The translations under genes and the position numbers were made by a program. 41,632 bases of DNA from a virus (lineage: Duplodnaviria > Heunggongvirae > Uroviricota > Caudoviricetes): positions 1 to 41,632 of IMG/VR virus record IMGVR_UViG_2547132279_000012; one strand, written 5' to 3'. The notes beneath the pieces were generated by a model. That model was not told the DNA's origin and searched no databases. It saw only the letters and a list, made by a program, of their open reading frames with translations. Of this stretch, positions 36,486 through 41,632 are shown piece after piece; the first letter of the stretch is position 1, and every line of letters starts with the position of its first letter.

Positions 36486-37018
36486 TATGCAGCCCTCACA
36501 ATATAGTTAAATGCAATATTCCTTGGTCGAACCCTAAAACCAGCCCCTGCGCCTGCTCCAATTGGTGGCAATTCGATAGAGGGGTATGCTGTTGCAGGGG
36601 AATATAAACCTTCACGGGAATCATAATCAGTCGTCATATAGTTAGACGTATTATCAGAAACAGTTTCTGTCGGTCTGGTAACCAGACGATAAGAGCCAGT
36701 GGTTGGTGACCTGACCAGACCAAAACTTTCAACCAGAGTGGCTTTTTGAAAGCTTAATAATCCCCGACCACTGTCAGCTCCACGCCCGTCATCCCAGCCA
36801 CGAATAAACTCACCACGTAAATCAGGCAATTTATTTGTCGGATAAGCCTTTGCCAGTTCCGGGTATTCTTCAGCAGAAAAAGCTGCACCGTTGCATTTCA
36901 GCCAGCCTGTCGGCGGAGTGGCTGAAGGCCATGGAACAGGGACACCAACAGGTAATGCCGAACCTTCTCCCAAACCAACGTTTATGAAAATGCAGAAATA
37001 ACGAGCAAATGGCATCAT
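36485..37018 (-). CDS. Alternative tail-fibre variable C-terminal cassette (silent in this orientation)
   Basis: Receptor-binding-type motif (PTGWLKCNGAAFSAEEYPELAKAY); crossover site at its FINVGLGE codons; no own promoter expected. Confidence 0.7.
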   Translation of the reverse strand: MMPFARYFCIFINVGLGEGSALPVGVPVPWPSATPPTGWLKCNGAAFSAEEYPELAKAYPTNKLPDLRGEFIRGWDDGRGADSGRGLLSFQKATLVESFGLVRSPTTGSYRLVTRPTETVSDNTSNYMTTDYDSREGLYSPATAYPSIELPPIGAGAGAGFRVRPRNIAFNYIVRAA

Positions 37019-37044
37019 TCCTGCTTTTGTCAGAGGGATCCACT

Positions 37045-37599
37045 ATGCTTATTGGCTATGTACGCGTATCAACAAATGACCAGAACACCGATCTACAACG
37101 TAATGCGTTGAACTGTGCAGGATGTGAGCTGATGTTTGAAGACAAGATAAGCGGTACAAAGTCCGACAGACCAGGACTGAAAAAGCTGCTCAGGACACTA
37201 TCGGCAGGTGACACGCTGGTGGTCTGGAAACTGGACCGACTGGGGCGCAGTATGCGGCATCTTGTCGTGCTGGTGGAGGAGTTGCGCGAACGAGGCATCA
37301 ACTTTCGTAGTCTGACGGATTCAATTGATACCAGTACCCCAATGGGGCGCTTTTTCTTTCATGTGATGGGTGCCCTGGCTGAAATGGAGCGTGAACTGAT
37401 TGTTGAACGAACAAAAGCTGGACTGGAAGCTGCTCGCGCACAGGGACGAATTGGTGGACGTCGTCCCAAACTTACACCAGAACAATGGGAGCAGGCCGGA
37501 CGATTAATTGCATCAGGCGTTCCTCGCCAGAAGGTGGCGATCATCTATGATGTTGGTATATCGACACTGTATAAGAAGTTTCCGGTCGGAGATAAATGA
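37045..37599 (+). CDS. Serine DNA invertase (Pin/Gin/Hin/Cin family)
   Basis: MLIGYVRVSTNDQNTDLQRNAL... resolvase/invertase N-terminus with catalytic Ser and C-terminal HTH; near-identical by recall to e14 Pin. Confidence 0.9.
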   Translation: MLIGYVRVSTNDQNTDLQRNALNCAGCELMFEDKISGTKSDRPGLKKLLRTLSAGDTLVVWKLDRLGRSMRHLVVLVEELRERGINFRSLTDSIDTSTPMGRFFFHVMGALAEMERELIVERTKAGLEAARAQGRIGGRRPKLTPEQWEQAGRLIASGVPRQKVAIIYDVGISTLYKKFPVGDK

Positions 37600-37637
37600 A
37601 ACCGTAGCACGTCGTATGCAAGAAGATCGTGCTGCGG
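37581..37637. repeat. Left copy of an imperfect direct repeat (about 35-45 bp, hairpin-containing) bracketing the GIY-YIG gene
   Basis: GAAACCGTAGCACGTCGTATGCAAGAAGATCGTGCTGCGG matches GAAACCCGTAGCCACGTCGTATGCAAGAACGTGCTACGA at 38611-38660. Confidence 0.5.
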
Positions 37638-37659
37638 TTTATGCTTATCACTTAAAGAC

Positions 37660-38529
<870 letters not shown>

Positions 38530-38610
38530 CTAAGCCTTTGAATTTACATAGTATAAAAAAGATACTTTTCCTCATAATGTGAATTAATTTTATGTTTCGT
38601 TTGATGATTG

Positions 38611-38660
38611 GACCGGTCTCGAAACCCGTAGCCACGTCGTATGCAAGAACGTGCTACGAC
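38611..38660. repeat. Right copy of the direct repeat bracketing the GIY-YIG gene
   Basis: See the left copy; lies in the promoter-side intergenic region of the minus-strand gene. Confidence 0.5.
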
Positions 38661-38906
38661 TGGCTGGTGAACTTCCGATAGTGCGAGTATTGAATGATTT
38701 CCAACTGTTATCGATTTTGCGTATTTTTTGCATGAGAGGATTTTTACCTCCTCCCACCGATCCTCCATGGCTTTACGCCAGTGTCTCTGGTCTGCTATGT
38801 ACCAGAAGCGGAAGTTGTGTCTGTTAGTATGATATTATAATTACACTCGCTTATAATAAGCCCACAATACAGATATAAAAATATCTCAACGCTTGGGAGT
38901 TAACAA

Positions 38907-39818
38907 ATGATTAACTTTACTGAAATTGATAGTGACGGTGAAGCCTGGGAGTCATTTGCCCGTGATTTTCTTGAAGAACTTGGCTTTTATATTGAATCCG
39001 CGCCAGATAGAGGTGCAGATGGAGGTAAAGATCTTTTAATCACAGAGCAATTGCAAGGTCAGTTAAATAAATATAAATTTCGTTGGCTTGTTAGCTGTAA
39101 ACATTATGCAACAAGTAAAAAATCAGTTTCAGAAAAGGATGAGATTAATATACAAGAACGTATTGATGGATTCAATGCCGACGGATTTATTGGATTTTAC
39201 TCAACACTGCCAAGTAGTGGTTTAAATTCAAGAATGACGCAATTAAAAGAGAATGGAAAAATAAAGGACTTTCGATTCTTTGATGGTAAATTAATTGAAA
39301 ATCACTTAGTCAGAATTGGTTACTCAAAACTACTCCTTAGATACTTTCCTGAGAGCTATAAAAAAATAAAACCCAAGCATTTGATTTTTGATAAGTACTT
39401 ACCTATAAAATGTGATCGTTGTGGAAAGGACTTAATAGAAAACCATCATGAAGAAAATTATGATGGCATTGTGTGCAATGCAGAGATCATACACGATGAC
39501 AAACCAAATGAGGTGATAGCGGTTTATTATGCGTGTAAAGGTGATTGTGATAAGCATTTTGAGGATTATTTTTGGAATGAATATAAAGCGATTACGAGAT
39601 GGCAGGATATAAGTGATCTAGCCATCCCATTATTCTATCTCAAATGGATTATGGGGACATTTAATGAACTTGAGTATGGAAGGAAAACATATACCAAAGA
39701 AGCCTTCAATAAAACAAAGGAGATAACATTAGCGCTATCTCAAATTGTTATGAGAGAAATGACAGAAAAAGAAAGAGAAAGAGTGATGGCTTTGAATTCA
39801 CTACCTGATTACATATAA
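38907..39818 (+). CDS. Mrr-cat-like PD-(D/E)xK nuclease-domain protein with C-terminal Cys-cluster domain
   Basis: FEEFARDFLEELGF...DRGADGGKDLLI...RWLVSCKHY matches the restriction-endonuclease (Mrr_cat) signature; CDRCGK...C...CKGDCDKH Cys cluster; very AT-rich. Confidence 0.65.
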   Translation: MINFTEIDSDGEAWESFARDFLEELGFYIESAPDRGADGGKDLLITEQLQGQLNKYKFRWLVSCKHYATSKKSVSEKDEINIQERIDGFNADGFIGFYSTLPSSGLNSRMTQLKENGKIKDFRFFDGKLIENHLVRIGYSKLLLRYFPESYKKIKPKHLIFDKYLPIKCDRCGKDLIENHHEENYDGIVCNAEIIHDDKPNEVIAVYYACKGDCDKHFEDYFWNEYKAITRWQDISDLAIPLFYLKWIMGTFNELEYGRKTYTKEAFNKTKEITLALSQIVMREMTEKERERVMALNSLPDYI

Positions 39819-40024
39819 ATTATATTTACTAACATTTGAACTAGCGCATCTTTGGTGCAGAGACACCACCATCTTGGGGACACTGTGAGGCCACTGGCTT
39901 CCCAACTTATCGTTATACAGGATAATAAGGTGCTCCAGGGTGGCTATGAACTTGATGTTACGTCTGCGATTTGCTCATAAGGGACAACCATACTCAAATC
40001 TCCCACATTGCAGGAGATTTGAGT

Positions 40025-40627
40025 ATGAACACGTCACCGTGGAACAAAGACCGTATCATCGGCCAAAAAAGACCACTTCAGATATCTCATATCTGGGGGA
40101 TCCGAATCCGGCTTGAACTGGAAGGTAAAACGCGCGATTTAGCTCAGTTCGATATGGTCCTGGACAGTAAGCTACGAGGCTGTGATCTGGTCAAACTCAA
40201 AGTATCTGATGTTGCATATGGTAGCTCTGCTTCAAGCAGAGCTACGGTGCTGCAACAGAAAACCGGTAGCCCTGTGCAGTTTGAGATAACCAAAGGGACA
40301 AGAGAAGCTGTTGCTGCATTGATAATGCTTGGCAATTTGCATAGTAAAGACTTCTTGTTTCGGTTTCTGGTCGGAACTAATCAGCTCATATCTACCCGGC
40401 AATACAACCGAATTTTTCATGGGTGGGTAGAAAAGCTTGGTCTCGAAGATTCGCTTTACAGCACTCATTCCATGAGAAGAACAAAACCTTACCTGATCTA
40501 CAAGAAAACCAAGAATCTTCGGGTGATCCAACTTCTGTTGGGCCATAAGAAACTGGAAAGCACAGTCCGTTATCTGGGTATTGAAGTAGATGATGTGTTA
40601 GAGATCTCTGAATCGATTGAAGTCTAA
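40025..40627 (+). CDS. Short tyrosine recombinase (catalytic domain only, about 200 aa)
   Basis: LRGCDL (Arg box), HSMRRT (H-x-x-R), LLGHKKLESTVRYL (His, Tyr); start taken at the ATG preceded by AGGAG inside a 13 bp inverted-repeat hairpin. Confidence 0.65.
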   Translation: MNTSPWNKDRIIGQKRPLQISHIWGIRIRLELEGKTRDLAQFDMVLDSKLRGCDLVKLKVSDVAYGSSASSRATVLQQKTGSPVQFEITKGTREAVAALIMLGNLHSKDFLFRFLVGTNQLISTRQYNRIFHGWVEKLGLEDSLYSTHSMRRTKPYLIYKKTKNLRVIQLLLGHKKLESTVRYLGIEVDDVLEISESIEV

Positions 40628-40750
40628 GGTTGTCAGGGCTGCAACAACAGCCCTGTGCCAGGAGTTGACACTGTTAGCATCGCGCTATGTTAATCTATGT
40701 TGAGCAGTTAAAAATGATAATGTAGTTTATATGGATAATCAGTTTATAGA

Positions 40751-41632
40751 GTGGGTGAGATGGAACTAGATGAAACACTTGAAGTTATCAAAAATAATTT
40801 TAGTAATAATCAGAAGAAACTATTTAAAAGGATTGAGCCAGCCACTAACCGTCAAGTAGCTATCGGTCTTATTAGTTTACAAGGAGTGGAAAAAACATCT
40901 CAGGCTGAGATAGAGGTAATTGCCGGCCTCATATCTCAGTTTAGTCCATTGGAAATCGATAGTTTTCAAAATTCACCACGACGAATAACTCTGAAAGGTC
41001 AATTCCCAAACGGACATATTGTTTATATCGAGCCTCAGTATAAGGTTGGCAATATAAACCCAAAAGCCCAGCCTTGGGCAATAGACCTTGTCCTTAGACT
41101 AAATAGATGGATTGGTCAAGATTTGGTTGAGATTGCTGCTATTGGCATCGAGTATGATGGCCACATAGCTCATTATGTGGAAAGTAAAATTAAGTCTACT
41201 TACAAGCGTGATGCAGTAATAACTAGTAACGAAGGATTTCAATCGATTAGGATCTCACCAGAACAATGGAAATCGTCTAAAGAGGATCTTAAGAAGGCAA
41301 TTAAAAAGTATTTTGAACATCACATAAAAAAAATTGAAAAAGTTCAACTAAGCACAATAAACGCCCAAAATTTCAACAATTTTATTTATGAAAATGAAAA
41401 TGAAGTGATATCCACTGTAACTTGCCCTTTATGTAATGGAAAAGGCAGTTTAGCGGGAGAAGATTGTCCGATCTGTAATGGAATGGGATCCGTAAAAAGA
41501 TATATTGCTGCAAAGGTGAATCTTTCTAATTATGAAAAATTCACTTGTCCTGACTGCAGGAATATAAAATTAGATTGCAGAACCTGCAATGGTGAAGGAT
41601 CAATTAGCAGAGAAAAAGCATTAGAAATGTAA
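40751..41632 (+). CDS. DUF559/Vsr-like endonuclease-fold domain fused to a DnaJ-type CxxCxGxG zinc finger
   Basis: AIDLVL...IGIEYDGHIAHYVESKIKSTYKRDAVITSNEGFQSIRISPEQW fits the DUF559 pattern (vD...iEvDG..H...D..RD..L..G..vlRf...e); C-terminal CPLCNGKGS, CPICNGMGS, CPDC, CRTCNGEGS; AT-rich. Confidence 0.55.
   Translation: MGEMELDETLEVIKNNFSNNQKKLFKRIEPATNRQVAIGLISLQGVEKTSQAEIEVIAGLISQFSPLEIDSFQNSPRRITLKGQFPNGHIVYIEPQYKVGNINPKAQPWAIDLVLRLNRWIGQDLVEIAAIGIEYDGHIAHYVESKIKSTYKRDAVITSNEGFQSIRISPEQWKSSKEDLKKAIKKYFEHHIKKIEKVQLSTINAQNFNNFIYENENEVISTVTCPLCNGKGSLAGEDCPICNGMGSVKRYIAAKVNLSNYEKFTCPDCRNIKLDCRTCNGEGSISREKALEM

Follow-up and report, generated by a model that had tools for sequence, protein, structure and literature searches.

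A mobile Mrr-like nuclease gene with a conserved four-cysteine domain as a candidate for an uncharacterised family of stand-alone defence nucleases

Single-gene nucleases that tell foreign from self DNA are components of bacterial immunity, and MspJI, AbaSI and CMoRE now also serve as tools for mapping DNA modification. In the type IV enzymes MspJI and AspBHI, a single polypeptide without a methyltransferase carries an N-terminal SRA-like reader and a C-terminal catalytic domain. EcoKMrr, also encoded by a solitary nuclease gene, has an N-terminal winged-helix domain followed by an Mrr_cat catalytic domain with a QxK motif. In DpnI and PvuRts1I/AbaSI, an N-terminal PD-(D/E)xK-type nuclease precedes a C-terminal specificity domain (a winged helix in DpnI, an SRA-like fold in PvuRts1I), within proteins of 250-320 residues that have no partner. 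Shedu (SduA) is likewise a one-gene system found in islands and mobile elements, in which a C-terminal PD-(D/E)xK nuclease (DUF4263) is joined to a variable or unfamiliar regulatory domain. Finally, the type IIF/IIP enzymes Cfr10I, NgoMIV and Bse634I, which have cognate methyltransferases and other folds around the nuclease core, show an SxK...E arrangement in which a distant glutamate stands in for the missing acid. Here we describe a gene, called the target below, at positions 38907-39818 of a 41,632-nucleotide stretch of tailed-phage DNA (Caudoviricetes; IMG/VR record IMGVR_UViG_2547132279_000012, positions 1-41,632; referred to as the window), and compare it with these systems.

The target encodes a protein of 303 residues in which an Mrr-like PD-(D/E)xK nuclease domain is followed by a four-cysteine alpha/beta domain. 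The Mrr-like superfamily is already known; what is new is the second domain of a solitary nuclease that travels as mobile-element cargo. Judged from its sequence, the protein is a solid and testable candidate for an uncharacterised defence nuclease family, and we put the chance that it acts as a stand-alone DNA endonuclease, carried by mobile elements as anti-phage or anti-foreign-DNA cargo, at slightly better than even. The features of the gene and protein are as follows, with conservation counted on an alignment of 78 sequences that are 31-97% identical to the query.

38907-39818, + strand: coding sequence, with ATG start, 303 codons and TAA stop.
38907-39356, + strand: Mrr-like PD-(D/E)xK nuclease domain, residues ~1-150, of alpha-beta-beta-beta-alpha-beta-alpha-beta topology.
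38949-38951, + strand: E15 of helix alpha-1, without variation in the main clade and a candidate glutamate of the metal site.
39018-39032, + strand: D38-G-G-K-D42, with D42 in 76/78 and D or E at position 38 in 77/78.
39093-39104, + strand: S63-C64-K65-H66 in strand beta-3, at the (E/Q)xK motif position (S63 77/78, C64 76/78, H66 76/78).
39141-39143, + strand: E79, a candidate relocated acidic residue, 14 residues past K65 (78/78).
39369-39815, + strand: four-cysteine alpha/beta domain, residues 155-303, for which no relatives were found in Pfam, PDB or BFVD.
39411-39422, + strand: C169-x2-C172, the zinc-knuckle half of a predicted metal site (each cysteine 78/78).
39534-39548, + strand: C210-x3-C214, the second half of a treble-clef-like site (C210 76/78, C214 77/78).

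That this open reading frame (ORF) is not a chance one follows from the existence of ~1,358 clusters of full-length homologues, which are proteins of ~300 residues, together with a ratio of nonsynonymous to synonymous substitution rates (dN/dS) of 0.18-0.20 across three enterobacterial alleles, showing that selection on the encoded protein is purifying. NCBI lists the protein (WP_000606914.1) under the product name 'restriction endonuclease'. A full-length AlphaFold2 model, made with 32 diverse homologues as input, resolves two domains (mean predicted local distance difference test score, pLDDT, 83; predicted template modelling score, pTM, 0.57), both of which are acidic by charge calculation.

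By hidden Markov model (HMM) and by fold, the target belongs to the Mrr-like PD-(D/E)xK superfamily. The Pfam profile Mrr_cat (PF04471) matches residues 10-77 at 24.9 bits, against a gathering score of 21, and also matched all 32 of the diverse homologues tested. The core alpha-beta-beta-beta-alpha-beta fold of the model superposes on solved Mrr-like catalytic domains, and in structural comparison the catalytic domains of AspBHI and MspJI, both type IV enzymes, match best. An earlier note, written from the letters of the DNA, had placed the 303-residue ORF correctly, had recognised the Mrr_cat signature from motifs that are indeed present (G-A-D38-G-G-K-D42-L-L and S63-C64-K65) and had proposed structure prediction as a check, which has now yielded the two-domain model with its Mrr-like fold; its estimate of 70 residues for the nuclease domain fell short, since the fold spans residues ~1-150.

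The PD-(D/E)xK reading in that note was also supported by the family alignment, on which the catalytic-type residues are kept. At least 95% conservation is seen in the N-terminal domain for D42, E47, W60, S63, C64, H66, E79 and Y98-S99-T100, the last of these lying in a conserved strand-turn, 'FIGFYSTxPS', that is part of the nuclease domain. D42 opens strand beta-2 (residues 41-48 in the model), the canonical place of the 'PD' aspartate. That D42, E47, S63, E79 and the YST motif hardly vary speaks for a functioning active site. Position 65 is lysine in 62 sequences and arginine in 16. In a Planctomycete clade of 16 sequences, K65 is replaced by arginine together with a change of E15 to valine or glycine (methionine in one), and D42, E47, S63, H66 and E79 are retained; to judge from these substitutions, the catalytic chemistry of this clade may be altered or lost. 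The joint change of E15 and K65 suggests that the two residues share one site. The clade that contains the protein from the window keeps every one of the listed catalytic-type residues, so that the loss of such residues, which the earlier note had named as refuting its reading, is not seen there. The Planctomycete sequences come from metagenome-assembled genomes (MAGs), our loci L054, L059-L060, L062-L063, L066, L068, L070-L072, L074-L075 and L077-L080.

The C-terminal domain, when modelled alone, gave a pLDDT of 87.7 and a pTM of 0.78. The earlier note had allotted 230 residues to this part of the protein, which proved to be an overestimate (~150 residues, ~155-303), and had described a five-cysteine cluster, of which C169, C172, C210 and C214 are conserved (76-78 of 78) and C190 is not; the remaining cysteine of the protein is C64, in the nuclease domain. 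In the model, C210 ends a beta-hairpin (strand 201-210) and C214 lies in the first turn of a helix (213-226). A CxxC knuckle, a beta-hairpin and two more ligands at a helix N-terminus, all of them conserved, form a geometry typical of a treble-clef structural zinc site, and the modelled domain is predicted to bind zinc. The domain is well conserved, with a mean column identity across phyla of 52%.

As the earlier note had anticipated, the domain has no recognisable relative: it matched no Pfam family and nothing in BFVD, and PDB searches, whether started from the protein, from the profile of the family or from that of the C-terminal domain, returned only glucosamine-6-P deaminase, NAA30 and chorismate mutase, at chance level. 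When the C-terminal profile was searched against 1.84 billion cluster representatives, 441 proteins were recovered, and the best 150 of these are nearly all either ~300-residue proteins with the same architecture or short; the short matches inspected are truncated copies, and the other short ones are probably likewise. The exception is P0226, a metagenomic protein of 460 residues (L093, 344-1726) in which the Cys4 domain follows a DUF559/MTES_1575 nuclease rather than an Mrr-like one. It comes from one contig of one sample, and ~90 relatives of its N-terminal part lack the Cys4 domain. Either a rare exchange of domains or a chimeric assembly may lie behind this fusion, which provides a hint of modularity rather than proof.

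Set beside the described systems, the target shares with MspJI and AspBHI the single polypeptide and the absence of a methyltransferase, but its catalytic domain is N-terminal where theirs is C-terminal, and its second domain is a Cys4 alpha/beta domain with no SRA similarity, which places it outside the MspJI family. The likeness to these enzymes is one of fold: in PDB searches the target had no sequence-level match to any solved structure, and neither the PDB profile search nor an hhalign comparison with EcoKMrr gave a residue-level alignment to a solved enzyme. Like EcoKMrr, the target is a solitary Mrr_cat nuclease, but with reversed domain order, an SxK motif and no hhalign match, and it is therefore not an orthologue. 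In overall plan and size the protein resembles DpnI and PvuRts1I/AbaSI by analogy, although neither the winged helix of the former nor the SRA-like fold of the latter matched the C-terminal model. The spacing of D42...S63-x-K65...E79 recalls Cfr10I, NgoMIV and Bse634I; by this analogy E79 is a candidate for the relocated acidic residue, and homology is not claimed. Shedu offers a parallel in its one-gene combination of nuclease and unfamiliar regulatory domain, but the target has no match to the PADLOC SduA model and its sensor role is putative. EcoKMcrA, in the e14 prophage, and PD-T4-3/CMoRE offer a positional analogy only, being HNH and GIY-YIG enzymes, respectively, of nuclease classes unrelated to that of the target.

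The family is widespread but sporadic. Identity between phyla is 50-60% over the full length, and hosts include Alpha-, Beta-, Gamma- and Deltaproteobacteria, Acidobacteriota, Chloroflexota, Planctomycetota, Bacteroidota, Verrucomicrobiota, candidate phyla radiation (CPR) lineages, Firmicutes and a Heimdallarchaeote. Among GTDB contigs taken at one genome per species, at least 194 of 185,579 species (~0.1%), from more than 10 phyla, carry the gene, and among complete genomes of Escherichia coli (E. coli) it is present in 13 of 5,426. In the window, the guanine-cytosine content (GC) of the gene is 33.7% (27% at third codon positions, GC3), whereas the prophage body has 53.6% and the window as a whole 49.9%. 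Low GC is a property of the family, the gene lying below its flanks in 56 of 67 loci by a median of 6 points (Wilcoxon p = 3e-9). The earlier note had taken the AT-richness as a mark of recent acquisition: the composition and the foreign, mobile context both hold, whereas 'recently acquired' carries little meaning for a family that is AT-richer than its flanks in most loci.

No conserved partner gene was found in 77 loci when the two nearest ORFs on each side were considered; the largest group of homologous neighbours covers five of these loci, all of them in related termite-gut MAGs. The Pfam families that recur among the neighbours are a mixed set in which DNA methyltransferases are absent, the recurrent methyltransferase matches being of the small-molecule type. 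Strong PADLOC matches among immediate neighbours, in one locus each, are to a type IIG restriction-modification enzyme, AbiU, Shedu SduA, PDC-S46, PDC-S14, an Aga nuclease and a CARF regulator. Of ten metagenome or genome contexts annotated with Pfam, seven have genes of toxin-antitoxin systems, defence or mobile elements near the target, from adjacent to several kb off: GmrSD_N with HEPN; a type I R subunit with Bro-N and AAA_23; HicAB; BrnTA with HEPN; an integrative and conjugative element (ICE) with relaxase and coupling protein; VapBC, which together with the target gene is wedged between a histidine kinase and its response regulator; and an integrase with ArdC. A 4.9-kb mobilizable plasmid of Acinetobacter carries the gene as its main cargo, and on a Sinorhizobium plasmid island it is found with AbiEii, a TrlF-type ATPase and a caspase-family gene. 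The condition under which the earlier note would have given up its reading, namely homologues confined to housekeeping contexts, thus does not describe the family, whose neighbourhoods are variable and often hold genes of toxin-antitoxin systems, defence or mobile elements.

Comparison of three unrelated enterobacterial contexts by blastn delimits the mobile unit to a cassette of ~1.19 kb, comprising the gene, 117 bp upstream and ~165 bp downstream.

38790-39980, + strand: mobile single-gene cassette, the sole stretch common to the three contexts.
38829-38857, + strand: predicted sigma-70-like promoter, ATGATA-17-TATAAT, scoring 10/12 in a consensus scan; the same -35 and -10 elements are annotated in AJ512685.
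38895-38899, + strand: ribosome-binding site GGGAG, 7 nt ahead of the ATG, from sequence reading; AJ512685 has a ribosome-binding site at the matching place.

Homology to E. coli BE2-5/AJ512685 (L002/L092) is confined to 38790-39977 (90.5%), and homology to the Phytobacter ursingii chromosome (L011) to 38790-39986 (94.7%). The BE2-5 copy is 100% identical to GenBank AJ512685, which is titled 'Bacteriophage P2-EC67 proviral Z-region, ORF1; putative lysogenic conversion protein'. In P2-EC67 the gene has annotated flanking inverted repeats of ~100 bp (L092, 3-115 and 1255-1345; L002, 9792-11291), and the breakpoints of homology with the window (92 and 1270) fall inside these repeats; no inverted repeats flanking the cassette were found in the window itself. 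The P2 tail-sheath gene FI starts just downstream of the AJ512685 sequence, so the cassette in this P2-like prophage occupies the slot between the tail-fibre assembly gene G and FI. This slot is the Z/fun locus of P2, home of the T5-exclusion gene fun(Z). The P2 hot-spot study of Rousset et al. (2022) dealt with the other P2 locus, old/tin. In the window, the target follows the ymfQ - tail fibre - tfa - pinE module of a prophage that is e14-like or of the Mu-tail kind. In the e14 element of E. coli K-12, mcrA occupies the slot adjoining pinE; here PD-T4-3 does so, and the cassette lies just past that gene.

A gene for a short tyrosine recombinase of ~200 residues (39971-40627) abuts the right edge of the cassette. 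Its ribosome-binding site and ATG are overlapped by a perfect 15-nt inverted repeat, CATACTCAAATCTCC / GGAGATTTGAGTATG, with a 9-nt loop (39989-40027), which could control the recombinase or be its site.

The explanation that we favour assigns cutting to the N-terminal Mrr-like PD-(D/E)xK domain, whose likely metal ligands would be D42, the S63-x-K65 motif, E15, E47 and E79. The Cys4 zinc site would hold the C-terminal domain together, and that domain would set when or what is cut. Sporadic spread, residence in known cargo and defence slots, neighbours from toxin-antitoxin systems, defence and mobile elements, the type IV enzyme PD-T4-3/CMoRE alongside in the window, purifying selection and low GC all speak for a cargo role. 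Since no methyltransferase, antitoxin or partner travels with the gene, safety for the host must lie in the protein itself; a solitary nuclease that has to spare host DNA must either recognise foreign DNA, as type IV enzymes do, or stay off until an infection signal arrives, as in abortive infection, the two possibilities that the earlier note had named. In the first version, what the C-terminal domain reads would be some chemically constant mark of foreign DNA, for instance a modified base or an unusual structure, and its recognition would directly license cleavage. We prefer this type IV-like version, tentatively and with less than even confidence, because the nearest structural relatives are catalytic domains of type IV enzymes, because a C-terminal domain so well conserved across phyla is easier to reconcile with a ligand that does not change than with a phage protein that evolves fast, and because an N-terminal nuclease with a C-terminal reader is the plan seen in DpnI and PvuRts1I/AbaSI. 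A nuclease without a cognate DNA methyltransferase, as expected for type IV, is also what is found in the 77 loci, in the 1.19-kb cassette and on the 4.9-kb plasmid. Taken one step further, the family would form a phylum-spanning class of single-protein restriction enzymes with the Cys4 domain as an unrecognised reader of DNA modification or structure, or else as a sensor of infection; this wider proposal is speculative and, on present evidence, rather unlikely.

Several observations weigh against the picture of a defence nuclease. The middle residue of the (D/E/Q)xK motif is a serine, S63, neither Glu nor Gln, so that activity is assumed for a sequence in which S63 replaces the usual acidic or Gln residue; the missing carboxylate may be supplied by E79, E47 and E15. 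As the hhalign comparison of the family profile with EcoKMrr gave no alignment, it is the Pfam HMM and the fold that tie the family to Mrr. The C-terminal domain has a net positive charge in just seven of 74 homologues, and an acidic domain would be unusual as a DNA-binding module. Nor was a recognisable modified-DNA reader (SRA-like, Mrr_N winged helix, McrB-N and the like) detected in the target, and a C-terminal domain that is acidic and unlike any known reader of this kind weakens the lean towards type IV. As for context, the tally of defence neighbours consists of raw counts, three of the ten contexts hold nothing defence-like, and viral contigs seldom carry the gene (10 loci in IMG/VR). 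The PADLOC check suggested by the earlier note returned no match to any v2.0.0 model, no family in PADLOC-DB v2.0.0 being hit at E<=1, and no paper that deals with the family came up in a literature search by accession and keywords. For the target, NCBIfam and PHROGs were uninformative apart from a weak match to a PHROG family annotated as resolvase (E 0.0014).

The acidity of the C-terminal domain bears directly on the second way in which a solitary nuclease could be made safe. A trigger-activated abortive-infection nuclease would be held inactive by its C-terminal domain or its oligomeric state until the binding of a phage protein or an infection by-product unleashed indiscriminate DNA degradation. 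A solitary gene that couples a nuclease to an unfamiliar 'sensor' domain matches such an architecture, and an acidic domain is better suited to a basic protein than to DNA. The occurrence of the Cys4 domain on the DUF559/MTES_1575 nuclease of P0226 similarly suggests a portable control module. Against this, that fusion is known from a single contig in a single sample, with the other relatives lacking the domain. The strong conservation of the C-terminal domain from Proteobacteria through Firmicutes and CPR to archaea is also unexpected in a sensor of fast-evolving phage proteins, and we consider this mode of action possible but doubtful.

The sharp boundaries of the 1.19-kb unit in three contexts, the ~100-bp inverted repeats annotated around the P2-EC67 copy, the short tyrosine recombinase and perfect 15-nt inverted repeat at the right edge, and the NCBI label 'restriction endonuclease' might instead be taken to indicate a selfish cassette, that is, a solitary type II-like or homing-like endonuclease gene that spreads by its own mobility and not by benefit to the host. 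A type II enzyme would be expected to have a linked DNA methyltransferase of matching specificity; none accompanies the target, and transfer of a type II enzyme to a cell without protection would be lethal. Homing endonucleases sit inside conserved or phage core genes, whereas the target is found in heterogeneous islands, plasmids and ICEs; the copy in the window lacks flanking inverted repeats, and the protein is under purifying selection. A selfish cassette thus appears quite improbable to us. Least credible of all is that the target serves in housekeeping or repair as a NucS-, Hjc- or Vsr-like nuclease, or that it is a catalytically dead protein which binds DNA or has a regulatory role. For this reading speak Ser at the middle position of the motif, the replacement of K65 by Arg in one clade, a weak resolvase-annotated PHROG match and certain loci that lie amid ordinary genes. 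Against it, the gene is present in a mere 13 of 5,426 E. coli genomes and ~0.1% of species, occupies prophages, plasmids and ICEs with atypical GC, has no conserved operon, and keeps D42, E47, S63, E79 and the YST motif nearly invariant.

The anti-foreign-DNA reading is of interest because the family is compact, strongly conserved, widespread and located in proven anti-phage hot spots, and yet is unnamed, is covered by no model in a defence database and, for half of the protein, lacks a structural relative. If the target restricts phage, its C-terminal half would be a new specificity domain, and this would help to explain the cargo of the P2 Z locus and of the pinE-adjacent region. If that half is indeed a reader or sensor, then the P2 Z locus and the e14-type pinE region would deliver an uncharacterised immune specificity alongside CMoRE. 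Should the target prove inert, it would merely be one more 'restriction endonuclease' annotation.

The gene next to the target was identified by PADLOC.

37660-38484, - strand: GIY-YIG gene, PD-T4-3 (PADLOC, 464 bits), divergent from the target across a 422-bp spacer.

The divergent arrangement is as the earlier note had described it. PD-T4-3 is CMoRE, a single-protein type IV enzyme that degrades DNA containing 5-hydroxymethylcytosine (5hmC) or its glucosylated form (5ghmC) and acts alone (PMC12923530). Within E. coli it is far commoner than the target gene, which usually does not accompany it: pinE and PD-T4-3 are present without the target in many E. coli, homology with the window then stopping at ~38810-38826. 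Conversely, the P2 Z region and Phytobacter have the target gene but not PD-T4-3. We considered whether the two genes form one system and rejected this, since each occurs without the other and PD-T4-3 works alone; they are hot-spot neighbours, not partners. The spacer between them contains a fragment of a RefSeq 'capsid protein' pseudogene (38645-38725, mapped from L001 11739-11819), which is a scar of an earlier rearrangement at the prophage end. An Rfam scan of 36500-41632 found no RNA family.

Further genes of the window resemble PADLOC candidates. Within the prophage, an AT-rich pair (32-37% GC) on the - strand, at 13181-13708 and 13716-14738, matches the candidate system PDC-M53 (B, 143 bits; A, 110 bits), and a 303-residue ORF on the + strand at 16430-17341 matches the candidate single-gene system PDC-S45 at 142 bits. 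A second gene combining a nuclease with a cysteine cluster, of 35.7% GC, lies 1 kb downstream of the target on the + strand (40751-41632). A relationship between its Cys-rich C-terminus and the C-terminal domain of the target was rejected on comparison. Its product has a DUF559/MTES_1575-like core at residues 107-184, under the Pfam cut-off, together with a zinc finger of DnaJ type (CxxCxGxG), and it matches the C-terminus of PADLOC PDC-M01B at 53 bits.

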